38,609 nucleotides of DNA from Chrysochromulina tobinii (Eukaryota), in contig JWZX01003099.1 in the NCBI GenBank assembly GCA_001275005.1, forward strand, positions 1 to 38,609, written 5' to 3'. The notes beneath the pieces are model-generated. The model worked only from the letters and a program-made list of their open reading frames with translations, searched no databases and was not told the DNA's origin. Of the stretch, positions 2,380-38,489 are shown piece after piece. The position numbers and the translations under genes are program-made. The number at the start of each line of letters is the position of its first letter. Position 1 is the stretch's first letter.

Positions 2380-5255
2380 ATGGCGATGGCGGAGAGCAGC
2401 AACGCGCTGAGCCTGAGCTGGGTCTTCGGCTTCGCGGATCGGTGCCCGGTGACCAACCTGTGCGACGCCAACCGCGCTGCCATCTTCTACGCCTCCGCGC
2501 ACACGGGCATCATCTACGACCTGAACTCGAAGAGCCAGCAGCTGCTGCAGGGGCACTGCAACCCGATCACGTGCACGTGCGCGAGCGCGGACCGGCGGCT
2601 TGTTGCGACGTCCGACCGCGGCGCCGACTCGATGCTCGTCGTCTGGGACTCGTACAGCACGCAGCCGGTCAAGACGATCGCGACGCCGCACCCACACGGC
2701 GTACATGCGATGGACATGTCGCCGGATGGCAAGTACCTGGTGACGCTCTCGGAGCCGGCGCCGGAGGGCGAGGCGGGCGGGCCGCAGGTGATCGCCGTGT
2801 GGGACTGCAGCCCGGCCGGCTCGAGCGACACGCCGATCTACTCGGCGATGGTGACGTCGCCGAGCGGCGAGGCGGCCGAGCTGCAGATCAGCGTGCGTCT
2901 CGACCCGTCCGACCCGACGCAGATCGTGACCAACGGCGCGTCGGTGGTCATCTTCTGGTCCTTTGCCGAGGGCGGCCTCACCTACTACTCTCCGCCGCTC
3001 TCGAGCCACGACTTCAAGCAGTCGATCGGCACACTCACCAAGTCCACTTTCCTCCCGGGCTCGACAAAGGCGGTCACCGCAACGGCCGACGGCGACTGCG
3101 TGCTCTGGGACGTTCTCGACTCGGGGCCGGCGGAGTACACGACCGAGCGGCGCGCGGCCAAGATCGTGCGCCTGCACACGGGCGCGGTCACCAACATTCT
3201 GACCGTCGGCAAGTACCTTGTCTCTGGAGGCGCCGACGGCCACGTGCGCTTCTACGACTTCGAGTTCCGCATCATCGCGTGGTTCGAGGACCTGGACGCT
3301 GGCGCGATCTCGTCGATCTCGTTCGCGGTGCCCACGAGCTCCGGCAAGGCCGCCAAGGCCGCCGCCGACGCCGCTGCATCCGGCGTGCTCAGCTGCCCCG
3401 ACTTTGTCGTTGGCACGTCCAACTCGCTCATCGTGAGCTGCCGGCCGTCGATGTTCGACGAGCTGATGACCGAGAGGAAGCGAGGCACGCTGCTCGTGCA
3501 GGGGCAGGACGCGCCCGTGCACGGGCTCGCCGCGCACCCGTCCCTCACGCGCTTCGCCGTCACCGGCAAGGCCGGCCTGCTGCAGCTATGGGACTATGCG
3601 GAAAAGCGGTTACTCCTCATGCGCATGTTCGACCGTCTCTCAGGGCACACGCTCGCCTTCTCGCCTAGTGGCAAGTTCCTCGCGATCGGCTTCACCTCGG
3701 GGCTGCTCAAGGTGCTCGTGGGCATGACCCTCGAGGAGGTGGCCACCTTCAAGGCCGCCGCCGGCTGCATCACCGCCGCAGCCTTTTCGCATGACTCGAC
3801 CTACCTCGCGACGTCGGACACGGACAACTGCGTGGGAGTCTATCGGCTCGGCAACCCTGGCGATGAGCCGACTGCCAAGAAGGAGTGGATCTTTGTGGGC
3901 AAGTACCGCGGCCACTACAAGCCGATCACGGGGCTGCAGTTCGGCGAGGGCTCGGACGGCTCAGCGCGCCTCTTCTCCTGCGGCGAGGACCGCGCACTGG
4001 TCGAGTACGACCTGGCGCGCTCGTCCGTCCAGGGAGGCATCCAGCTGCGCAACACGTCCAAGATCGAGCAGACGGGCGTGCCGACCGGATGCGTGTACGT
4101 GCCCGCAGGCGCGCAGGACGCCGAGCCGCACGTGGTCACTGCCAACGACCAGTACAAGCTGCGCGTCATCGCGCCCGGCCCCAAGTCCATTCAACGCACC
4201 GTCGTAGGCCCAACGTACGGCGGGCCGTTGACCCGCATGCTGCTCCTCTCCCCGGGCGAATCGCCGCAGCCGGGCGCGCCGCGCTACCTTGCGTACGCGA
4301 CGCACGACAAGGTGGTGGGCCTCGTGCAGATGCCTCTCGATGGCAACCCGAACAAGACGATGGGTCTGATCGCGCACCCCGGGGAGGTGGGCGATTGCAT
4401 GCTGATGACCTCTGATTGCCTCCCTCGTCATCGCGCACCCCGGGGAGGTGGGCGAGCTCGTTTAAGGGCGAGCTCGTTTAAGGGGCTCAATTGCCTCTGA
4501 GTGCCTTTGAGTGCCACACATCGCCGCTCATTGCCACCCATGGCCTCCATCATCAGGTGAGCGATCTCGTAGCGAGCTGGGACGGCCAGTGGCTACTCAC
4601 CGCGGGCGGCCACGATCGCTCCATCCATATGTGGAACGTGCGGCCGGCAGCGCTCGTGGCGACGGCGAAAGCGGGCGGGAGCGGCATCGCGCCCTTTGTG
4701 TCGCAGCTCGACGGCGGCGCGCAGGGCACCGTTTACGAGGAGATCGTCGACCACTTTTACTACGCGCAGCTGCGTGCGCAAGGGGAGGACTCGACTGAGC
4801 CACGGAAGATCACAGGCAAGGTGCCCATGTCTGAATTGGGCAATATGATGCGCTCGCTCGGATTCTACCCGTCAGGTCGCGAGATCGACGAGATGACATC
4901 CGAGGCCAAAGCCGTCGCGCAGGCCGCCGGACGGCCCGCCGACTCATTCACCTTCGACGAGTTCCTCGCCCTGTACGTTAACCACCGTCCCATTCTGGGC
5001 GTCTCCAAGGAGCAGATCGCCGATGCCTTCGCGGTGCTCGCTACGGACGGATCGGGTGTCCTCTCACGCGAGGCCCTCGTACGCGTTCTCAACTCATACG
5101 ATGAGGCCCTGGGCGCCGACGACCTTTCAAAGTGCCTGCAGCTGCTCGTTGGCTCCGAGCGCCCCGAGGTCGCCATCCCCGAGCGCGTGGACGCCAAGGT
5201 CTTCGCCGAGACGCTCCTCGGCTTTCAGGACTACGGCGCCGAGGCGGCCGCGTGA
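2380..5255 (+). CDS. CFAP251: Cilia- and flagella-associated protein 251 (WD40 repeats plus C-terminal EF-hand-like region); exons 2380-4386 and 4557-5255, about 901 aa
   Basis: Motifs LSLSWVFGF, QQLLQGHCNPI, GPTYGGPL, LPLDGNP-like MPLDGNPNKTMGLIAHPGE|VSDL, and DHFYYAQLRAQGEDSTEPRK...MRSLGFYPS are characteristic of WDR66/CFAP251. A phase-0 GT-AG intron at 4387-4556 joins the two ORFs in frame. Confidence 0.9.
4387..4556 (+). other. Repeat-type intron of CFAP251 with an internal 26-bp copy of the exon/donor junction
   Basis: GT...CATCAG boundaries; 4369-4394 is identical to 4430-4455; contains CTGATGACCTCTGATTGCCTCCCTC. Confidence 0.85.
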
Positions 5256-9607: not shown

Positions 9608-11375
9608 TCAATCCGTTTTCGACAGCTTGAGGGCAAAGCTCGTCGACTTGACGTTTCCGAATAGGGGCTTCACCTTCACAGGCTCGAACCCGAGCGATGG
9701 GTACAGCCGCCCATGCGCGTCCGCCTGCAACGTCGAGGTCTCCAGCACGACCCGATGATAGCCCGCTTGATCGCAGAACCGTTTGAGCTCGGCAAACAGG
9801 GCCTTAGCGACACCCGTGCCTGTGATTGGTGGCGAGCACGAAGAGTGGCACTCAATCGCAATCAGTGGTCATCAGTGGCCATCCGTGGCAATCAATCGCA
9901 ATCAGCGGTCATCCGTGGTCATCCGTGGCAAGAGCATACCCCTTGCCCAGCTCGCAACGCTCATCCGACGAAGCTCAGCATCGGTGCCATCAGCTGCGCC
10001 CCTCCACGGCGCGCTCGCCCGTTGCACGGCCACCGTGCCGCACACCTGATGGCCCGTGGCAATTCGTGGCAATTCGTGGTCATCAGTGGCAATTAGTGGC
10101 AATCAGTGGCAATCAGTGGCAATTGGTGGCAATTAGTGGTCATCAGTGGCGCTCGTCAATTCAGTGGCATCAGCCGCACACCTGCCCCGAGGCATCGTCG
10201 ATCGCCACCCAGAAGCAGGAGCCCGGAGAGCTCAGGTAGTGGGCGTAGGGACTTTTCATGTCGTCCTCCAGACACGAGTTGACGTAGTTGCTCGCGAGCC
10301 TTTGAGGGGCCAGCCAATAGACGAGAGCGCTGCACACAAGGGCGAAGCACAGCCCGAGGGCCGCCGGCATCGCAGCAGCTTCAATCTTGAGGTGGGCCGG
10401 CGACGGGGTCTTGAAGGCTGTGACGGTAGCGGCCTGCGCCATGCCGAGGCCGAAGAGCTGCATCGCCATCGCCCAAACCCAATTGCGCGCAATCACACCG
10501 AGGGCGGCCAGAAGGGCCAGCGAGAGAGCCGCCGCACGTCTACACGGCTGCACAAGCTCGGCACGGAGGCCCGAGATGATCGTCTCGTGCATGCCACTCG
10601 CGAATAGGGCAACTGCCGCCGCCTCGTCGTCGGGTCGCAGCACACGCAGGACTAGACCGGGCACGCGCTGTGAAGGCACGAGCTGTGAAGGTACCGGCTT
10701 GGGCGGTGGCCTCGCATCACCGTCGTCACGGTCGGCCGCCTCGCCAGCGGACGCCGACGATGCCGCCGCCGACGACGAAGATGACGACACCTCGTCCAGC
10801 AGCCGCCGGAGCGTCCTCAAGGGGAGGCCGATGACGGCGTCACGTGCGCCTTCCAACCGAGTCACATATGGAGCAAAGAGCGGATCGTCGATGGCGAACG
10901 CACCCGACGAGTTGTAGATGCGTCCTTGCGCGATGGCCTCGTCGATCGTCGACTCGGGGAAGGAGTCGAAGCTCACCGACGCAATCTCGTTTGCAGCGCG
11001 CCGCTCGCCCGTCTTCAAATTGTGGACCACGCAGCCGTTTACACACTCAGCCTTGGAGCCAGCCTGGTAGCTTGCGAGGAATCGGCGTGCCTCTGCTTCG
11101 GATGTGGGCTTCTCGCGGATGCAACCGTCACACACTACGACTTGGTCCATGCAGATCAGGAGCGCATCAGCCGCCGGATCCTCGCTGAGCATCTGCTCCA
11201 CCAACGCATCCGCCTTGGCATTGGCTATCAGCCGGGTGAGAGTCTGTGCGTCAGTGTGCCGAATAGCATTCTCATCTATGTCGGGCGATCGGAACGAGCT
11301 GCGCTCTAGCGGAAAGTGTTCCTCAAAGAGCGCGCGGCGGAAGGCGGACGAGGAGCCGAGAACAAGTCGTGGCAT
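9608..11375 (-). CDS. Maf-family nucleotide pyrophosphatase fused to a NAT8/camello-like GNAT acetyltransferase; exons 11375-10182, 10045-9940 and 9819-9608, about 503 aa
   Basis: Maf motifs: LVLGSSSAFRR, PDIDE, ANAKA, LLICMDQVV, IREKP, SGAF and VIGLP. GNAT motifs: TM segment, YVNSCLEDDM..PGSCFWVA, AELRRMSVASWARGTGVAKAL, VVLETSTLQ and LYPSLGF. Two GT-AG introns join the exons in frame. Confidence 0.8.
9820..10181 (-). repeat. Two introns (9939-9820 and 10181-10046) filled with 10-bp TGATTGCCAC/TGATGACCAC-type arrays
   Basis: On the + strand, repeated gtggcaatca/gtggtcatca units at a 10-bp period flank the 106-bp exon. Confidence 0.85.
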
Positions 11376-13001: not shown

Positions 13002-13186
13002 CGTCATGTTCCCTCCCGTGTCCTGAGTGGCGGCTCGTAGTGCTCCCTTGAGGGCGTTGCATGCAGGCTGATGGGCCTGCATGAACATGCCACGTCATGT
13101 TCCCTCCCGTGTCCTGAGTGGCAGCTCGTAGTGCTCCCTCCTCGGCCGCGTGTGCCGCCCATCAGCCTGCATACAACGCCCTCAAG
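13002..13186. repeat. Interleaved 47-bp direct repeat and 30-bp inverted repeat in intergenic DNA
   Basis: Direct repeat 13002-13048 vs 13093-13139 (1 mismatch); inverted repeat 13047-13076 vs 13157-13186 (1 mismatch). Confidence 0.85.
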
Positions 13187-13333
13187 CGCGTCGCTTCGAG
13201 CGCGTCGCACGTTCATCTCCATCCTCCTTCCGTTGACGAAACGCGTTCATCGTAACGTCGCTCGTTCATCTCCATCCTCCTTCCGCGCGCACGGTACCGC
13301 TAACGTGCACAGTGCACGGAGTGTGGTGGACTT

Positions 13334-16500: not shown

Positions 16501-17903
16501 CTCGTACACCTCCTTGATGGTCTTCTGCTCCTTTTGGTACGTGTGCAGGATTTCGAGGAAGGCCTTGTACGTCTCGGGCTGCTTGGCGAAGCGCGTCTTA
16601 ATCTTGGTCACGTAGTTGATCGCCTGGTCGAACTCGATGGGGGCCTTCTTGTTGGCAGGGGCCGCGGGCGGGCCAGGCGGAGCGGTGTCCATCGGCTGGC
16701 CACCCATCCGGTCGTACCCGACGGGCCCCACCCCAGCCGCCCCGTGCGGCACCGAGAGCGGCACGGGCTGCTGCACCTGCGCCTGCACCGCCGCCGCCGC
16801 GTGCGCCGCGTTCATCTGCGCAAAGCCCTGCGGCTGTGGTCCTGTCATCCCTGGCGGATACTTGAGCTGCACGCGCGGCTTGTTCTCGTCTTCCGAAAAC
16901 TCGATCTTGTACCCGGGCGGCTGCGAGCGAGACGGCACCAAAGCGCACCACCACACGGTCGGCGGTGCGAGCGTCGCGCGGCGCGCGCCACCGATGCGAA
17001 GTGCCTTTGGGGGGGGAGGCTAGCGAGCAGCTGGGTGCAAAGCTGGGCGCTGTGCAGCGGGGCGCCGTGCAGGGCGCCGTGTTGGGCGCACCAGGAAGGT
17101 GTTGAAGCCGAGAATGAGCTCGCGGTGGCCAAAGAAGAGGTTGAGCACGCGGTCGATGACGCCCGGCGTGTCAATGCTCTGCGCCTTGAACTCCTTCATG
17201 ATGTCGAGGAACTGCCACAGGACGCGCGCGCACGCGAGATTTCGTCAATAAGCCGGCGTGTGCGCGTGCGCGACGCGCGCACGAGAGTGTCCATCACAAT
17301 GGCGCCGGGCGCGACGCGGCTCCGGCGTGCGGCGCACGCGCCATCGAGACAAGGCGCGCGCGCGCAAGCGCATACCTTGTTGTAGATCTGAGGCTGCTTC
17401 TCGAACTTCATCTTGACTTGGTCCAGATACGCGAGGGCGTCCTCAACCTTGAGCTGACGGTAAGGCTGCGGTTGAGCCGCCGGGCCGCCGGGTGCCATGG
17501 GCACGTTGCCACCAGGGAGCGGGCCCTGCGGCTCGTACTTGATTGGCGCGTCGGGCATCGACACACCGCCGCGATCAGGCTGCTGCCCACCCATCACGCC
17601 TGGATTCGGAGCGCCTGGCATGGGGCCAGGCCCGCCCGGGGGACCCTGTCGTCCGGGCTGTTGCATGGGGGGCATTCCCGAGGTGGGTGGGAGCTGGCCC
17701 ATTGGCATTGGCGGCCGCGAATCGCCCTGCGGCGCCGAGATTCCAGCGTGAGGCGCAGAGGATGACAGAGGCGGGAGGATGGGTGCCGACCCCCCGGCCA
17801 TCGCGGGGTTTGGTGGCGCGGCGCTTTCGGCAGGCTTGTCTGACATGGTGGCGGGCTCGGTTGTGGGTGCGGTGTCCATGGACTCGTGCTTGATCTCAGA
17901 CAT
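13513..17903 (-). CDS. SIN3: Paired amphipathic helix co-repressor Sin3; exons 17903-17376, 17211-17092 and 16920-13513, about 1351 aa
   Basis: PAH1 [14 protein letters not shown]...[12 protein letters not shown]...GFNTFL|PPGYKI; PAH2 [19 protein letters not shown]3; HDAC-interacting region [28 protein letters not shown]-terminal [21 protein letters not shown]. Two phase-0 GT-AG introns. Confidence 0.93.
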
Positions 17904-27235: not shown

Positions 27236-30200
27236 TTACATAACGATTCGCGGTTTGTACCGTCGACGACGTACATTATAGATATAGTAGCAGTGAGCAG
27301 AATGGCACATGTGTAACGTAAGGCCGGCCGATCGATGGTGAATAGATGGAGAATGCTTGCCGTTCGGTCCCGGCGTAGTCCCGGCGCTCATGCCTTCGGC
27401 TGCGACTCCGCGCCTGAGGTTGAGCGTGTCTGGACGTGGGCACCCGGCGGGCAGTGCGGCACGCCTCCGCTGCCCGCCGTGGTCCTCTCTCTCTCGCTCT
27501 CTCTCTCTCAGACCTGCAATGAACGGCCGCCGCCGCGGCGGGCGGCGCTCGTACGCCCCCCCGGGCGCACGTGCTTGAGCGCGGGGAGTCACCCAAGCGT
27601 CCGCGGGGCTTGTGGAGTAGCTCACCTGATGAGGGAGGCCATCACAGGTCATCAGTGATCATCAGTAGCAATCACAAGCGTCCGCGGGGCTTATGGAGTA
27701 GCTCGCTTGATGAGGGAAGCCATCAGTCGCTTGATGAGGGAAGCCATCAGTCGCTTGATGAGGGAAGCCATCAGTCGCTTGATGAGGGAAGCCATCAGTC
27801 GCTTGATGAGGGAAGCCATCAGTCAGGATAAGTCGCAAACAGAGGCCATCAGTGGCAATCACCCCCATCGCAGTCCTCGGTGATGAGGGAGGCCATCAGT
27901 GGCAATCAGTGGCAATCACCCCCATCGCAGTCCTCGGTGACCGTGGCCGAGTCGACCACACCGGCGGCTCGGCAGGTAGCTCCGCCTCCTTGTCCACCTC
28001 GTGCATCGAGTCTTGCGGGGGGGGATGCGAGGGACCATTGCAGCTTCGTGCTGGCCGGTGTTTCTTCGAGTTGCTGCCGATATCTGCATCGGCGCCGGCG
28101 CCGCCGCCGGCGCCGCCGCCGCTGCTGCTGCTCCCACCGCGGTGCTTGACACTGTGAATGACGAGGATGAAGATAAACCCCACGACAGAGAGAAAGAACA
28201 TCAACCCTAAGATCGCCCGCCGTTGCGCCCGCTGCATCTCCGGTCGGGGCGCCGTACCGAGCACGTCCTGCCTAATTAGGAGCGCCTCGTTCTCAGGGCG
28301 CACGCTACCGGGTAGCGGCTCGTCCTCGTGCAATACGTCGCGAGATTCGCGCTCCGTCGGAAGCTCCGCCTGATGAGGGAGGCAATCAGAGGTCATCAGT
28401 GGTCATCGGTGGAAATACGTCGCGAGATTCGCGCTCCGTCGGAAGATTCGCGCTCCGTTGGAAGCTCCGCCTGATGAGAGGAGCCATCAGGCGCACTCTG
28501 GCGCACTCAGCGATTCGCTCACCGGGGCAGTGAGGGTGGCGATCAGCGATACGCTCACCGGGGCAGTGATGAGGGTGGCACTCAGCGATTCGCTCACCGG
28601 GGCAGTGAGGAGGGTGGCACTCAGCGATTCGCTCACCGGGGCAGTGATGAGGGAGGCGAAGAAACCGGTAGGGGCGCGATCCGTGCCCACCAGAAGCTTA
28701 TCAGTGAGGTCAATCTCGCGGCACATGCGATGATCGCTGCCCGTGTCGGCCTGAACTCTCTTTCCATGCGCTCCCTTGCCCTTAGCAGCACTGAAGCGAG
28801 TCGCCTTGTAGGAGCGGGTCGAGCGTACGTACCTATGTGGGGAGGAGGGGGCGCCGTGGTGAGCACGTGCATGCAAGCAGCGCCCTGTGGGTCGAGCGCA
28901 CGTACACGTTGCGGATGCGAATGTAGTCGCCACGCCGCTGTTTGGGCGACGGGGACGAGTAGTAGAGCTCGAGGCGGTCCATGCTGTCCCAGGGAGTGAG
29001 CCCGGGGTAGTAGTAGTATGCGTCCTAATTTGGGAGGTGCGCATGATGAGGTGATGATGAGGTCATCAGAGGTCATCAGAGGTCATCAGAGTTCATCAGA
29101 GGTCATCAGCGGCCCTCGTGGCACCTGGATTGGGATGCTGAACGAATGCCACGTGGCCGCCCGCCACCCCCCCGGAGGCTGCGGAATCAAGAACTGCACT
29201 CCCTTGACATTATTCTCCTTCGTGTACTCAAACACGTGCAGCACGTGCGACGTGTTCGAGACGAAGACCTCCATCTCAATGGAGGCATTCGCGAGCAGCC
29301 GGCCGTCCCAGCCCACGATGGCGCTCAGGTTGGTCGTCAGCAGTTGCAGCTTGCGATCGGGTCCGAATTGGCCGAGGATGCCGTACCTGATGCAATCAGA
29401 CGCAATCAGACGCAATCAGAGGCAATCAGAGGCAATCAGATGAAATCATATTCAATCATATTATTCAATCGGATGCAATCAGACGCAATCAGACGCAATC
29501 CTACGCAATTTGACGCAATCTGACGCAATCTGACGCAATCTGACGCAATCATATGCAATCACACGCAATCATATGCAATCATACGCAATCATATGCACTC
29601 AGACGCAATCATACGCAATCAGACCGCAATCCTACCGGTTGGGTAGGATGTCAAAGCGAGCAATCCGACGGAAGAGAGGCAAGCACGAGTCCGAGCCCTT
29701 GCGTGTGTAGTGCATCGTCTGCGGGCTGGCGCGCCCCGCGCTCGAGGCGCTCTCGACGGCGCGTGCATGCAGCGCGTGTGAGAGAGGAGAGTACGAGTTG
29801 AGTAAGAGCACATCCGCGCCCGTGCACACCGCATGCGCGATCAGTAGATGCGCCTGGCTCTCTCCAACTGGACGGCCCCCGAGCATCACCTGCATGCAAT
29901 CGGTCGCAATCAGTCGCAATCAGTCGCACTCAGTCGCAATCGGTAGCAATCAGTCGCAATCAGGCGCAATCAGGCCTCCGAGCATCACCTCGGCCGCCTC
30001 GGCCGCCTCCGCAAGAGTGTAGAAGGTGGATCCCATCGCGAGGGTCGCTCCGCTTGCGAGGGTGCGCGGTAAAGTACGCACGCCGTCAGAGAGGATGAAG
30101 ACTGGATCTTCCATCGGAAGTCGCGGCAGATTGGCAGCGAGCACGTCGTGGTTGACGTGGCATGCCATGCCTGATGAGGGGGGCAATCGGAGCTCATCGG

Positions 30201-33200
30201 AGCTCATCGGAGCTCATCGGAGCTCATCGGAGCTCATCGGAGCTCATCGGAGCTCATCAGCGATGCTCAGCGGCTCCATGTGGCATTGCATGCCTGAGTC
30301 GAACCGCTGATTGCCTCAATCAGATGCACTCAGATGCACTCAGATGCACTCAGATGCAATCAGATGGAACATGTGGCAGGGCATGCCTGAGTCGAACATG
30401 GTGCGGACCCACTGTCGACCATAGGATGAGGAGCCCGCCTCGGCGTCGTACCTGATGCACGGGGCAATCGGAGGCGATCAGAAGGACCTCCGATGTCGGC
30501 AGGCAGAGGTCATCATGGGCTTTGTACCTGATGAGGGGGGCAATCCGTTGCAAACAGTTGCAATCAGACTGATGAGGGGGGCCATCCGTTGCAATCCGTT
30601 GCGATCCATCACACTCCGAGGCCATCCTCGCTCATCAGAGGTCATCCTCGCTCATCAGAGGTCATCAGTGGTCATCAGAGGTGTCATCAGAGGTCATCAG
30701 TGGCCATCCTCGCTCATCAGAGGTCGCTCATCATCAGTGCTCATCAGAGCTCGGCTTCGGCAGCGTACCCGATGAGGGATGCAATCAGAGGTCATCAGAG
30801 CTCATCAGAGCTCGGCGTCGGCAGCGTACCCGTCGCACACAGACGAGGGCAGTCGGCCATGGTACGGATCCGAAGAGACGAAACTCGATGAGGCGCCGTC
30901 ATGGCCCAATTGACGAACCTCGATGGCCATCTCTCCGTTCTCGAGGACCTCGGCCGAAAACGGGCGCGACTGCGCCGCTGGCTGCGCGAGGTCGGTGAGC
31001 GCCTCGAGTTTCGTCCACGCCGATGTGGTGAGCACGGCCGCGTCCAAGTCGGACAGATGCACGCACGAGTACCGGCGGGTGGCGAGTCGTAACTGCTTGG
31101 TCACCGCCGCTGCGGCAGCGTGCACCTCGGCGGTTTCGCTCCATAGAAGGGTGCCGATGCTTGCCCACCATGCGAGATCCGCCCGAGATCGTGCGGAGAT
31201 CCGCATGAGTTGGTCACGAGATGCAACCTCGTCCCCAATCGTGCGCCCGTCCGAGATGGAGGCTGATGGCGTCTGATTACCAACCTCATCCCCCATCGTG
31301 CGCCCGTCCAAGCTGTGGAACCCATCGAAGGCGGCGTAGAAGTGCGAGATTGCGAGCACCCGATCTCGGCACGCGCCGTACAGGCGCTGGTAGTCGAACG
31401 AGGAGCCCATCTGTGAAGACACGTGCACCTCGCTCACCTGTGAAAACGAGGGACGGGGCGCGCCGTGGTGAGCACGTGCATGCTGGGCGAGGAGGCCATC
31501 TGTGACGACACGTGGAGCGTGCACACATTCGCCCAGCCGAGGACGTTGTCAAAGTAGGTGCGCGAGGGCAGCAGGCGAGGGTCCTTGGCGTGCAGCATCA
31601 CCAAGCGCGTGGGGCGCAGCCCGAGCGCGAGGAATTCGGCCATCTCGAGCGCCCCAGGAGAGAGCGCGAGCAGCGAGCCCATCTCGAACAATCTCGAGTA
31701 GCGCGCGAGCTGCTGCAGGCTGCCGTCGAGGAGCAGGTGGGGCACCACGAGTGCGCGCCCAAGACTACGCGCGATCGCGAGCGCATTTTTGAGGCTGACG
31801 AACCATTCGCCGAGCCCGCTGTGAGGCTGGTAGACAAGGTAACGGCGAGCCGAGCTGCCCGTGACGGCGCCCGTGGCGGCGCCCGTGGCGGCGCCTGTTA
31901 CGGGCGGGCGACGCAAGCCACCGAGCGTCGTCCCGAGCGCCGCGCCGTCACGGGCGCCGCCGCCCGCGCCGTCGCGCGCGCCGTCTCGGGCGCGGCTCGA
32001 GGGCAAAAGGGCGATCTGGGCATCGAGATCATCCAATGCGCAGCCGACGCCGCCGAGGGCGATGGACGCGCTGCCGCGGGCGCTGGCGCTGCTGGTACTG
32101 CTGCTGCTGCTGCTACTGCTGCTGCTACTGCTGCTGCTACTGCTACTGCTGCTACTGCTGCTGCTGCTGGTACTCCTGCTGCTGCTGCTGGTACTGCTGC
32201 TGCTTCCGCGACCGCCGCCCACGACGGCGCCTCGGCTGGCGACGGCGCCGTCGCCGGACACGTCGCGGGCGGTGGAGTACTCAAGTTGCGGTGTGTACTC
32301 AAGTTGCATCCCTGACCAGAGGGCGGCGAGGGCCGCGTATTCCTCGACGATGCGCTCCTTCTCGGCGGGCGTCGGCGCGCTCGTCGCGTACCGTGCGCCC
32401 CACCATCGGATATTCTCCGAAAAGGAGAAGCCCTGCGTGATGAGAGCTGGGAGGGTACGGCGCTGGTGGTGCAGATCGAAGGTTGGCAGCTCTTCGTGCG
32501 CGGGCATTTGACGAAGCACGTTGGCCACCTGTGGGGAGAGGGGCGGGGCGCTATGGTGAGCACTTGCATGCGAGCGGGCATTTCACGAAGCACGTTGGCA
32601 TTTGACGAACCTCGACGAGCTCGAGCTCGGAGAGTAGAGGCGTCGTCTTGAGCTCGTCCAGGTCGGTGCGCAGCGCGTCGGTGATCGCCTGCCTCACCCC
32701 ATCTGTGCCGGTATGGTCCCCTCGTTCCATGTAGGTCGTCGAGAAGGCCTGCGGCAGAACGTCCAGCCGACTCTCAACGGTGAAGAGTAATCAAGGGCAC
32801 TCCAGGGAGATCAAGGGAGATCAAGGGAGATCCAGGGAGATCAAGGGCGATCCAGGGAGATCAAAGGCGATCCAGGGAGATCAAAGGAGATCAAAGGAGA
32901 TCAAGGGCGATCCAGGGAGAGCCCACCTGCTGGTGCCTCATGTTCGGGTAGAGCATCACATAGCCTCGGCCGTACATGTAGTCAACCATGAAGCGCTTCC
33001 ACGAGCGCGGCCACACGTTGGAGCGCGAGCGCGGCAGCAGCACCGCCGGGTCTCCGAGCGGCTCGCGGTTCTTACCCACGCCACGCTGATGGGCCTCCTG
33101 CGTGAAGTTGAAAAAGGGCGGGCGCGCGCGCGCGCGGTAGAAGCGCACGAAGTCGCGCCACATCGAGCCGAGGTACAGAGCGCCCCACGAGCACGGCACC

Positions 33201-33952
33201 TGCAGCAGAAAGGCGTTCGCCGCGGTCGCCTTGTCGGGCAGCCATCGCACCTGCGGGTAGACGATCTCATTGAGGCGCGGCGTGTACAGGCTGACGCCCA
33301 CGAGGCGCTTCGCGCGCATCGCGCGCCCGTCGTCGAAGTCGCCGTACGCGCTCGCCGCCCGCAGCAGCCACCAGTAGAAGAGCGGAGAGACTTCGATGTC
33401 ATCCTCGAGCGGAAGCACGTGCTCGTCGTCTCGTAGGTCGTCCGCGCGCGAGCTGTTGATCCACATGCCACGGATGCCCATCGGGCGGTCGAACTCGACC
33501 ACCTCCTTCGGGCCGTACGGCCAGTCCAGTCCGCGCACGAAGTCGACCACCTCCGGCAGCGCGCCGCTGTCAAGGACCATGCGGAGCGGCACCGTCCGGT
33601 TGCAGTAGCGCGCGCGCTTGAGCGACGTGATGAGGCGCACCAGGGAGGGCATCCGGCGCCACGCGAAGGCGATTATGGTCACGTTGAGCTGCAGCGCACC
33701 CGGCGCGAATTCGGGCGTATCGCACACGTCTGCGTATTGCACCAGCGGCTCGGAAGGGTTATTGTCGTCGTAGACGGTGGTGAAACTGCCATCGGTATCT
33801 CCGATCGTAGCACGTGCCGGACGCGTTGACCAGCTCTGTGAGCTACCTAGTGACGAGGAGAAGCCCAGCAGCAGCAGCAGCAGCAGCATCGTGAGCACGA
33901 GCAGTGCGACGAGGCGATGTAGCCGGCTTAGGCCTGGCGCTCGTGGCCGCAT
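27236..33952 (-). CDS. Multi-domain glycosyltransferase: N-terminal TM + GT-A domain + O-fucosyltransferase-like GT-B domain + CBM-like domain + second TM; 12 exons, about 1545 aa
   Basis: Modelled exons 33952-32927, 32748-32611, 32528-31527, 31437-30830, 30451-30387, 30170-29989, 29889-29636, 29386-29125, 29024-28906, 28832-28691, 28369-27920 and 27625-27236 give one continuous frame (ten GT-AG introns, one GC-AG). GT-A motifs: AWRRMPSLVRLITSL, LEDDIEVSPLFY, LQVPCSWG and SWKRFMVDYMYGRGYVMLYPN. O-FucT-like motifs: YLVYQPHSGLG..LKNALAIARSLGRALVVP, VFILSD and VCTGADVLLLNSYSPLS. The last exon is the least certain. Confidence 0.7.
27703..27822 (-). repeat. Intronic tandem repeat, 5 x 24 bp, derived from the acceptor cassette (sense CTGATGGCTTCCCTCATCAAGCGA)
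   Basis: Five identical copies of tcgcttgatgagggaagccatcag on the + strand. Confidence 0.9.
28504..28652 (-). repeat. Intronic tandem repeat, about 4 x 36-39 bp
   Basis: Core cagcgat[t/a]cgctcaccggggcagtga occurs four times with short near-identical linkers. Confidence 0.85.
29387..29635 (-). repeat. Intron composed mostly of 10-bp TGATTGCGTC/TGATTGCATA-type repeats
   Basis: Many gacgcaatca/tatgcaatca-like units on the + strand between the splice sites. Confidence 0.9.
30171..30829 (-). repeat. Two introns (30386-30171, GC-AG; 30829-30452) with CGATGAGCTC, TGAGTGCATC and TGATGACCTC 10-bp arrays
   Basis: On the + strand, runs of gagctcatcg, gatgcactca and gaggtcatca units flank the 65-bp exon. 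Confidence 0.8.
32085..32204 (-). repeat. Coding trinucleotide microsatellite encoding a poly-Ser linker
   Basis: (CTG/CTA)n on the + strand, which reads AGC/AGT in frame between the GT-A and O-FucT-like domains. Confidence 0.9.
32749..32926 (-). repeat. Intron with a TGATCTCCCT/GGATCTCCCT 10-bp array (same array family as the MYB intron 37352-37121)
   Basis: agggagatca/agggagatcc units on the + strand at about 32800-32920 and 37155-37347. Confidence 0.9.
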
Positions 33953-34119
33953 CGAGAAGTCCTACAGCTACTCGTCTACAGCTTCGAACAAAGCTCGCCT
34001 TTTTATCTCCGACGCTCACCGAGCGCAAGGAGCCTGCGCTGCGCGTGTCAGGTTTGAAACGGGACGGAAGAGGAATCCGCTTATTACTTGACTTGACTTG
34101 TCTTGCATATCGCTCTTCT

Positions 34120-36538: not shown

Positions 36539-38489
36539 TCAATGGTTGTACTGGCTGCCAGTAGAGGCGGCAAAGGCGCCGCCCAATGGCGAATCAAAGC
36601 CCGCGGTCGTGAAGCCGTCGGTCGTCGAGGGCGAGTCGCCATAAGACCACGCGCCCGTCATCCCAGGGACGTAGTTCAACGGTCGGCCGGGCGCGAGGAC
36701 CAGCTGCTGCCGCCGCTGCCGGTCCTCGTAAATGTTCTGTAGCCGATGAAAGCGGTTGCGGATGGCGTGCTCAGTGCGACCAGGTAGCCGATCGGCGAGT
36801 TTACTCCATTTATGGCCTAGCTCCGCGACTAAGCTCAGGATGGCGTCATCTTCGGCCTTGGACCAAGAGACCCGGGGCTCGGCGGCTCGGATGGCGACAC
36901 TCTCCGCTACGTGGCCACGGCGCGCTGATGCCGAGGGCAAGCTCGCACCGAGGGTCGCGCCATGGTGGGCGCCCATTGTCGCGCCGCTGGCGATGCCAGG
37001 CGCCATCGTGGGCGCCATCGCCATGCCGCCCGCCTCGGCCGGTGCCTCGGCAGCGGGCGCCGGCGCGGCGACGCCGTCGTCGGCCACCTCGACGAGCACG
37101 CTCCCACCGACGTCGCCGGCCTGGCGGGGGGAGATAGCGAATCGGGGGAGGGAGGTCAAGGGAGATCAAGGGAGATCAAGGGAGGGAGGTCACGAGGGAG
37201 ATCAAGGGAGATCAAGGGAGGGAGGTCAAGGGCGGTAGAGCGTCGGGCAGCGCCATGGTGGGCGCCATCGTCTGCCCGCCGACCTTCTCTCTGCAGCCTG
37301 CAGATCGTCGGGGGGAGATCAAGGGAGATCAAGGGAGATCAAGGGAGCCGACCTTCTCTCTGCAGCCTGCAGGGGTGTCTCTGGGGGCGGCGTCTCTGGT
37401 AGAGGCGGCCTGTTGAAGACGGAACCAGCGGTTACGCACAGCGTCGTCCGAGCGACCAGGCAGTTCGACGGCAATCTTGCGCCAGCAGCACCCGTGCTCC
37501 TGCACCGCGCGCTGGATGATGCAGTCCTCGAGGTCTGACCACTCTTTGCGCTCGGCGCCGTTTCGAGCGGGTTTGAGGCCCAACGCCAGCTGCCTATTTA
37601 GGAGACTGCCCTGTGGGGTTGCGCCGAACGAGGGGGCGGTCGAGGGCGGAGCGGTGGCGGCTGGCGGCAGCTGTAGCGAGGCATAGGGCGCCGTGGTTGG
37701 CGCGAGCACTTGCCCGGGGAGATAGCTGCAGCTGTGAGCAATCGGCAGGGCGTCGTATGAGGCGTCGTATTTGTTACGGGGATTGTGCGGCCCATACCCG
37801 TCATGACGGGGATTGTGCGGCCCATACCCGTCATGACGGGGATTGTGCGGCCCATACCCGTCATGACGGGGATTGTGCGGCCCATACCCGTCATGAGCGC
37901 CGTGCGGCACGCCCAGCGCGAGATCGAGCGGGAGATCGAGCGGGAGATCGAACGCGAGATCGAGGTTGGCTTCGTCAGGCTCGTCTTCATCGGGGCGCCC
38001 GTTCAACGGCTGCCCGATGGTGAGCCCGGGACGGCGATGGAGCATGGCAGGGGTCGGGTGCGTGAATGCACCCGCGAGGTGCACGGGCGGCGCCCCGAGC
38101 GCCGCTCCGCTCTGCGTGGGCGCCGCGGCCGGCAGAGCCACGCCAGCGTCCTCATCCATGCCATGGCAGACCCATTCAAATGCTGGCATGGCATACAAAG
38201 CCTCGGAGGTCGTGCCAGCATGGGGTCTGTAGGGATTCGTGCCGGCATGGGGTCTGTGGGGATTCTTCGCCGGGGGGGCGGCGGCGGCCGACATCAAGTG
38301 CGCCGGCCGCAGCGGCGGGTACATCGACTGTTGTTGGAAGGCGCGCGGTTGGGCGGCCTTTGCCTTCGCCTTGGCCGCCTCCGCGCGCCTCGTGGCCTCG
38401 TGCGCCTCGACCTCGGCCGCCGCGGCCGCCTCGTCAGCGGCGATGGCCTCCAGCAAAGCGAGCTCGTTAGCCGTTGGCTTGCGCCTCAT
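36539..38489 (-). CDS. MYB/SANT-domain transcription factor with two separated MYB repeats; exons 38489-37353 and 37120-36539 (the frame stays open to the right edge, so the true start may lie outside the window)
   Basis: WSDLEDCII...HGCCWRKIAVELPGRSDDAVRNRWFRL and WSKAEDDAI...GHKWSKLADRLPGRTEHAIRNRFHRL; a phase-0 GT-AG intron at 37352-37121 joins them. Confidence 0.8.
37776..37895 (-). repeat. Coding tandem repeat, 4 x 30 bp (HDGYGPHNPR)
   Basis: Four identical copies of acggggattgtgcggcccatacccgtcatg. Confidence 0.95.

Follow-up and report, generated by a model that had tools for sequence, protein, structure and literature searches.

The window, that is, the whole analyzed stretch of 38,609 nucleotides of Chrysochromulina tobinii DNA, carries on its minus strand a multi-domain glycosyltransferase-like gene (27500..33958) whose homologues contain PF10250. 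We represent this gene by a 12-exon model in which the 3' limit of the last exon is provisional. The model has zero stops in all exons, and 11 homologues map colinearly to it. Among its 11 introns, a copy of the beginning of the next exon is located at or near the intron start in six and only internally in two (28636-28370 and 27919-27626), and in the other three the identity extends over at most 1-3 nt.

The 3' tails of these introns recur as families, which we call F1 and F2. Intron 1 (32749..32926) instead has a third repeat type, with 10-nt CT-rich units, and no exon copy, so that the range of duplication-bearing introns given in an earlier note on this DNA, which ended at 32926, extends too far. 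The individual matches reported in that note were reproduced on recomputation, except that the match in intron 2 (32529..32610; F2) was confirmed by reading the alignment. Intron 2 begins with next-exon sequence recopied in two steps, about nt 13-26 first and then nt 4-29 at 25/26. Intron 3 (31438..31526; F2) matches the 39-nt start of the next exon at 32/39 positions, intron 4 (30452..30829; F1) has a 10/12 copy, intron 5 (30171..30386; F1, with a GC donor) has a 12/14 copy, and intron 6 (29890..29988; F1) has a 15/16 copy adjoining a repeat array. Intron 7 (29387..29635; F1) shares only 3 nt with its next exon, and intron 8 (29025..29124; F1-like) has no exon copy. Intron 9 (28833..28905; F2) has a 16/17 copy. 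The upstream exon lacks a terminal AG at both 31526 and 28905, and for this reason the AG of intron 9 must be supplied by the insert.

Several of these introns also contain nested events, which the earlier reading missed, as it did local donors. Near 30770 in intron 4, the donor region is recopied behind a tail without its AG, and near 30300 intron 5 contains a nested copy of the junction. In predicted intron 10 (28370..28636; F1) the donor region is repeated about four times, and an internal acceptor is followed by a copy of the next-exon start at 28470. In predicted intron 11 (27626..27919; F1) the donor region has been copied again, and 32 nt in the interior duplicate the next-exon start.

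The pattern is also found in unrelated genes of the window, as the earlier note had claimed. A minus-strand F1 intron at 10046..10181, whose splicing is predicted, has a 9/9 copy, and a plus-strand F1 intron in CFAP251 (4387..4556) has an 8/9 copy and a nested 26-nt recopy of the exon end and donor. A minus-strand candidate CT-repeat intron in another gene (37297..37366) has a flanking direct repeat some 25 nt long.

Of the 11 introns of the glycosyltransferase-like gene, seven (introns 1-7) are skipped in RNA contigs, some by net length only. Direct evidence consists of a skip of 89 nt at 31526-31438 (RNA runs X15 and X16) and one of 249 nt at 29635-29387 (run X13). One X13 contig has an unlisted stretch, 253 nt long, that agrees exactly with the three introns from 30829 to 29890, and by the same net-length arithmetic on the RNA contig table, the introns at 32926 and 32610 exactly fit a 139-nt stretch. 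One RNA piece ends at 29124, on the donor side of intron 8; among introns 8-11, mapping of homologues backs introns 8 and 9 only. The donors at 31526, 30829 and 30386 are covered by DNA unitigs at single-copy depth (40-46), and the intron/next-exon copy pattern recurs in many other assemblies. These data confirm that the duplications are real, and not an artifact of assembly.

We surveyed about 0.83 Mb of related loci selected by the pattern. Acceptors outside the window were called by motif. The acceptor motifs numbered 317 for F1 and 63 for F2, and a copy was counted at a score of at least 10, with shorter copies left uncounted. An upstream copy of the next-exon start was found at 76/182 motif-defined F1 acceptors versus 0/1774 shuffled pairs, and at 18/43 F2 acceptors versus 3/402. 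Controls within the same locus gave 3/182 (F1) and 2/43 (F2). The comparison with shuffled exon pairs that the earlier note had suggested therefore favors its observation in these pattern-selected loci. Over half of the acceptors lack a copy scoring at least 10, which counts against the template-switch reading proposed below. Scans of viral contigs for the pattern gave 0, 0 and 2 matches, one of which was inspected and proved to be unrelated coding-like sequence; two matches in prokaryote genomes were set aside as presumed chance.

Sequence common to different introns is limited to the 3' tail. The tail motifs are present in very high copy, with DNA depth of up to 69,000 versus about 45. The 69 non-nested copies span 10-60 nt continuously, with no modal length, which supports the earlier inference that host exon, duplicated over a variable length, provides the donor and that only the 3' part of the intron is inserted. 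The copy starts with GT or GC in 65 of these 69, and the exon after an F1 tail begins with GT or GC in 165/182. An A occurs at position -2 of the upstream exon in 34/69, so the exon frequently does not end in AG. A fixed sense orientation, also claimed earlier, is borne out by neighbors within 1 kb, 83 of which are on the same strand versus 2 on the opposite strand (one of the 2 is a false motif match). Copies are perfect in 24/69 cases and diverge by 5% on average, in agreement with the proposal that the events differ in age.

One locus (L041) has a 79-nt intron that consists of a 28-nt perfect duplication followed by a 51-nt tail. At the homologous site of another locus (L068), from a different genome, the sequence is present as a single copy without an intron, and the other two introns of the gene are retained. 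This is the intron-less allele that the earlier note had said to look for. Among 15 listed members of the cluster, seven ORFs begin in the preceding intron and read through this site, five begin within the intron itself, and three are ambiguous. ORFs of a more divergent group and of relatives also read through. In relatives (contigs of 9-262 kb), ORFs read through all three positions in the PPR gene and the CFAP251 position, the latter having been put forward earlier as a good test. These observations point to ongoing intron birth in this haptophyte. The screen for presence/absence comprised seven aligned pairs of overlapping loci and yielded this single site, a scarcity that counts against template switching.

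The tail of the new intron in L041 has an 18-nt head that, in about 0.87 Mb searched, recurs in just one other place, an intron of the same gene that lies 448 nt upstream. More generally, the best match of a tail is local at p<0.05 in 10/54 recipients (binomial 3e-4, with two reciprocal pairs). The top 5% of similarity is reached by 21% of same-strand pairs under 1 kb apart, by 10% at 1-3 kb and by 3-7% beyond 3 kb. Three points count against a template-switch interpretation of these data: a clear local donor is absent for 44/54 recipients, tails under 1 kb apart are on average only a little more similar (percentile 0.55, p about 0.1), and later gene conversion between neighbors could also produce tail likeness.

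The joints between copy and tail have a mean microhomology of 2.19 nt (42 cases) versus 1.44 nt in simulations (p=0.0014). Of 20 tails without AG, nine rejoin a local copy (null 0.5%), and one uses the acceptor of the duplicate. Linkers at the 5' end of the insert measure 0-88 nt, that is, heads are variable, and 8/22 linkers match their own flanks over at least 9 nt (null 11%), with nested copies accounting for some of these. Exon starts of likely donor/recipient pairs share 4.22 matches versus 4.17 at random (18 pairs), and a long stretch of homology where synthesis returns is therefore not the rule, although 14/18 nt are common there in the polarized donor/recipient case. Folding of F1 tails is weakly better than that of shuffled sequences (z between -2.3 and +0.3 for five F1 tails). 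A tail hairpin was considered as the driver of the process and is unsupported, with z near -2 or lower in only 3/8 tails.

The 5' ends of these introns are thus next-exon duplications, and we consider it fairly probable that they arise when DNA synthesis uses as its template the 3' tail of an intron already present and rejoins the exon 10-60 bases back. Synthesis, during replication or break repair, would depart from the exon, copy a tail that often belongs to the same gene, and return behind its departure point, thereby duplicating an exon stretch. The switches may be guided by short microhomology, with many possible end points. An exonic event would be retained only if the duplicate starts with GT or GC and the tail places an AG just ahead of the second copy: under these conditions splicing recovers the exact message. 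Within introns, the process would be unfiltered and could leave nested copies and tails without AG. Candidate pathways are polymerase-theta-like end joining and break-induced replication mediated by microhomology (MMBIR), both of which produce templated insertions with microhomology, and the template might be DNA or pre-mRNA. Elements of this scheme that were observed are the end product (an exon duplicate, branch-point-like repeats and AG), the empty allele and one polarized donor neighbor. As each new intron would provide a fresh template, introns would multiply without a transposase. We judge the chances to be about even that such a transposon-free chain reaction, in which each intron can seed its neighbors by way of a 10-60 nt duplication, underlies a large fraction of the introns in this alga, past and present.

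Local donors, junction microhomology and inserts that end before AG lead us to favor microhomology-guided template switching or break repair over retrotransposition or a DNA-transposon introner. The earlier note had offered break repair with templated fill-in and target-primed reverse transcription side by side; the former fits, whereas the latter fits worse because intronic inserts often end before AG, the cross-locus matches listed share no longer body and some donors are local. In target-primed reverse transcription, a non-autonomous retroelement or an excised intron RNA would insert with a fixed 3' end, 5' truncation and a variable target-site duplication (TSD). A variable duplication, sense-only orientation, acceptor-ending exonic tails and 5' microhomology are all expected of it, and all are observed. 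The very high copy number of tail motifs and the lack of a local donor for most recipients also agree with it, and non-LTR introners are described in the available portion of PMC12130899. However, inserts do not share a fixed 3' end, as the truncated tails rejoining local copies before AG demonstrate, and the junctions listed contain no poly-A tract. Among 47 cross-locus matches, the 39 that were listed are tail motifs or simple repeats with no longer common body beyond the tails, in a sample of under 1 Mb. Moreover, the sole newborn intron copies its neighbor, and the behavior is common to three or more unrelated types of tail. We therefore regard this explanation as unlikely. An RNA template from the same transcript is possible; only one opposite-strand F1 pair lies within 3 kb, too few to tell such a template from DNA.

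Secondary duplication is a less probable general account. In this scenario, repeat-rich introns slip across their own acceptors, drawing a copy of the exon start into the intron, and lose their older 5' parts, whereupon the copy serves as the new donor, such that old introns are renewed and no new positions arise. Copies directly behind another acceptor (25/94, our nested class) and repeat arrays that differ in length between genomes are in line with slippage, which probably accounts for many nested cases. Against it are the single-copy, intron-less site in L068, the read-through by relatives' ORFs described above, and a second tail from a different family in some nested cases (L036 and L075).

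A MITE-like DNA-transposon introner, which would carry the acceptor and recruit its donor from a target-site duplication, is very improbable. Its splice-site geometry is that of introner classes described in the available portions of the Symbiodinium and Polarella reports cited below, introners are present in marine Chrysochromulina MAGs, and F1 tails contain a 6-7 bp complement between repeat unit and acceptor. This complement is internal, a qualification to the earlier statement that TIRs are absent. The idea is largely refuted by the length distribution of the duplications, and the insert has a variable 5' end, no terminal inverted repeats and a single orientation. The earlier preference against such an element is thereby upheld. 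Finally, assembly artifact or chance likeness has a negligible probability, for although short-read unitigs are broken at repeats, RNA contigs skip the introns with the frame restored, the copies have diverged and no shuffled F1 pair reached the threshold.

The origin of the sequence of new spliceosomal introns is an open question to which this system is relevant, and, introners apart, such sequence usually has no identified source in the available portions of PMC3443670 and PMC4202315. Here, the source, target and empty site of an intron gain are all visible, and the footprint is found at roughly 40% of motif-defined acceptors. Because the alga is culturable, repair-based and self-feeding intron gain is directly testable. 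Screens based on similarity across entire introns and on short TSDs of fixed length would likely overlook introns in which the 5' half consists of unique host sequence. A description of the pattern was not found in the literature searched, which lay outside subscription journals and bioRxiv supplements. In its available portion, the paper on the C. tobin genome (PMC4580454) refers to introns a single time, to give their number.

Introners of Symbiodinium and of Polarella (classes 4/5 and 6/8/10) bring a 3' splice site with them and take the 5' one from the TSD, according to the available portions of PMC9860276 and bioRxiv 10.1101/2020.10.14.339549. They resemble our introns in their duplicated-exon donor, inserted acceptor, exactly restored mRNA, exons that open with the donor dinucleotide, and genome-wide scale. 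However, the same portions describe TSDs of 3-9 bp, fixed by class, with defined ends and often TIRs, whereas here copies are 10-60 nt, 5' and 3' ends vary, donors can be local and events are nested. The Chrysochromulina introner described in the portion of PMC9860276 covered has the opposite geometry, carrying the 5' site with a 4-bp TSD, and the part of the supplement covered names C. tobinii and C. parva solely in its table of input genomes. In the model of Rogers, also taken from the portion of PMC3443670 available, an exon segment that contains AGGT is duplicated in tandem in the genome, and the 5' end of the intron likewise duplicates the downstream exon. That model derives both splice sites from the duplicate, with no foreign addition; in the alga, the branch point and AG are provided by the tail of an intron, with a 51-nt insert at the polymorphic site. 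Intron transposition or transfer, as presented in the same portion, shares the use of an existing intron as source, but moves the whole intron without a long duplication, in contrast to the 3' part alone. Polymerase-theta end joining and MMBIR are similar in their short microhomology, repeated switching and local templated fill, but the available portions of PMC8421209, PMC7165422 and PMC4912351 do not report them as a genome-scale source of introns. In Daphnia, too, new introns are polymorphic and flanked by direct repeats, have extra internal repeats when young, and are gained repeatedly at a site. Of the features of Daphnia-type break repair, we found a single-copy empty site (at one locus) and flanking repeats in excess of the level in unrelated pairs. 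Daphnia inserts are AT-rich, with a source identified for few; in this alga it is another intron whose 3' tail is inserted, and for this reason the process would feed itself.

Introns whose 5' ends repeat the beginning of the following exon are real, are spliced and occur throughout the lineage. The intron/next-exon copies named in the earlier note were each rechecked at their coordinates; all are present, with the identities reported there. The window's DNA is GC-rich and eukaryotic, and an annotated Chrysochromulina parva protein belongs to the same protein cluster as the window's CFAP251 exon; on that ground the organism is described here as C. parva-like. The model of the host gene, a glycosyltransferase-like gene at 27500..33958 (-), has 11 introns and 12 exons; the running frame is stop-free across all 12 exons, and 11 homologous proteins map colinearly with it. 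RNA contigs from two runs skip the 89 nt of intron 3 (31526-31438), and a contig from one run skips the 249 nt of intron 7 (29635-29387). One RNA contig places 253 unlisted bases across 29878 to 30825, corresponding to two small exons plus junction overlap with introns 4-6 removed (30829-30452, 30386-30171 and 29988-29890). Another, with 139 bases, is consistent with introns 1 (32926-32749) and 2 (32610-32529) having been spliced out; intron 2 contains a two-step recopy of the next exon. Because intron and exon share their start, the splice cut inside the shared prefix was inferred by using GT/GC-AG. On the same (-) strand, introns 8 and 9 (29124-29025 and 28905-28833) are placed by homologue mapping, and introns 10 and 11 (28636-28370 and 27919-27626) are predicted from the frame alone.

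The window disagrees with every run that covers the sites, by a substitution at 28333 and a one-base omission at 27554; it may therefore hold small errors or another allele there. The inserted 3' part of these introns, the tail, has branch-point-like repeats and falls into two families, F1 and F2. A third 10-nt repeat type lies within introns at 32804-32920 and 37146-37347, and the 10-nt period is common to it and F1. Two introns (16921-17091 and 17212-17375) of a gene that, from its translation-like pattern, we take to be Sin3-like have neither repeat tails nor any exon copy, and are candidates for older introns. The intergenic stretch 13035-13290, downstream of this gene, contains direct repeats as well as one short inverted repeat.

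Related loci, labelled L005-L145, came from one metagenome scan with an F1 acceptor motif, and the figures that follow are among the matches listed. Acceptors, called by motif without RNA, were retained after removal of duplicates if non-repeat sequence followed them (91 and 28 locus groups). An upstream match to the next exon's start scoring at least 10 was found for 76 of 182 F1 and 18 of 43 F2 acceptors. At this threshold, shuffled pairs gave 0/1774 and 3/402, and same-locus controls gave 3 and 2 copies, respectively. Of these 94 copies, 25 are nested and 69 have no acceptor before them and were read as intron starts. The latter range from 10 to 60 nt with no mode; 65 begin with GT or GC, and 24 are perfect (mismatches at 90 of 1814 positions overall). 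GT or GC also begins 165 of the 182 exons behind F1 tails, including those with no detectable copy.

Some tails appear to have come from nearby introns. Among the matches listed, 54 recipients had local candidates, and in 10 of them the best tail match was local at p<0.05 (two pairs enter this count twice); similarity in the top 5% was reached by 21% of same-strand pairs less than 1 kb apart, 10% at 1-3 kb and 3-7% farther away. For most of the 54, no local donor was identifiable in this tail comparison, so distant donors or decay also play a part. One case involves two alleles, L041 and L068, of a PPR-gene locus. In about 0.87 Mb searched, the 18-nt head of a new tail in L041 was found only there and in another intron of that gene, 448 nt farther upstream; in L041 both share a variant base at which the upstream intron of L068 differs. 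Three other loci, L045 (7745 and 10613), L135 and L054, have same-locus introns 0.2-2.9 kb apart with near-identical idiosyncratic tails; these are likely further donor/recipient pairs.

Where the copy/tail joint could be scored against known repeat context (42 of 76 F1 cases), overlap averaged 2.19 nt, versus 1.44 nt in simulated blunt joins (p=0.0014). Among the matches listed, 69 of 91 linkers between copy and tail measure 0-8 nt. Of the 22 longer linkers, 8 match sequence in their own flanks, in some cases only through nesting. Of 20 listed intronic tails without AG, 9 rejoin a local copy, and several of these copies span the donor and the end of the upstream exon. If such a tail had an AG, a duplicated mini-exon would be added to the message, so selection would be expected to leave the AG out, provided that the process itself has no fixed end. 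A mirror case near L067:10271 has a tail that lacks AG, and the acceptor behind it is provided by 39 nt copied from the end of the upstream exon.

We consider it reasonably probable that template switching guided by microhomology, during replication or break repair, makes these introns. Synthesis would depart from the exon, copy an intron tail and restart behind the point of exit, and splicing would filter the outcomes; the template may be pre-mRNA. Counting against template switching, likely donors and recipients resemble each other at their exon starts no more than random pairs do. Copying of tails could also occur by target-primed reverse transcription of intron-tail RNA, which we regard as unlikely.

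The PPR gene (L041:9563-10060 and L068:1875-2395) has three introns, of which the third segregates, the one clean intron indel among seven aligned pairs of overlapping loci. At this site L041 contains a perfect 28-nt duplication followed by a 51-nt tail, and L068 contains the 28 nt once. L068 is genomic, because it retains the other two introns and intergenic DNA. Among 15 listed of the 49 members of the PPR-gene cluster, five ORFs start within the segregating intron, seven start in the preceding intron and cross the site, and three are ambiguous. In a more divergent sequence group, ORFs run through the site, and relatives at 47-64% identity, on contigs that reach 9-15 kb, have full-length ORFs unbroken at each of the three positions. 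The CFAP251 intron position (4387-4556) is likewise read through in relatives, one such ORF lying on a 262-kb contig; such lengths suggest genomic DNA. On the basis of one polymorphic site, gain is more parsimonious than remodelling alone, and ongoing gain of this type is the more parsimonious reading. That slippage only renews old introns is improbable as a general account, and it likely holds for many nested cases.

One ORF, P0228, begins in PPR-gene intron 1 and passes the other two sites uninterrupted, which would fit either incomplete splicing of a transcript or an allele that has neither of the later introns. ORFs entering the CFAP251 intron diverge among records beyond its nested copy, so the intron's interior varies between genomes. 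The PPR alleles also differ by two insertions in intergenic DNA (L041:8387-8732), 101 and 200 nt long, each with a short direct repeat at its ends and no intron tail.

In the literature searched, we found no account of this duplication-start pattern. The accessible part of a paper on introners (PMC12130899) does not mention haptophytes, and that of PMC8469720 describes fungal introns with TIRs and without duplications. As far as the available portions of the following reports describe them, three systems are similar. Introners with target-site duplication (TSD) donors (PMC9860276; bioRxiv 2020.10.14.339549) also recruit the donor from duplicated target, but have a fixed short TSD and fixed ends; neither is present here, and a DNA-transposon introner is very improbable. 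Break-repair gains in Daphnia (PMC4202315) are alike, except that here the source of the insert is identified and self-renewing. The duplication described by Rogers (PMC3443670) is also alike, whereas here foreign sequence is added.
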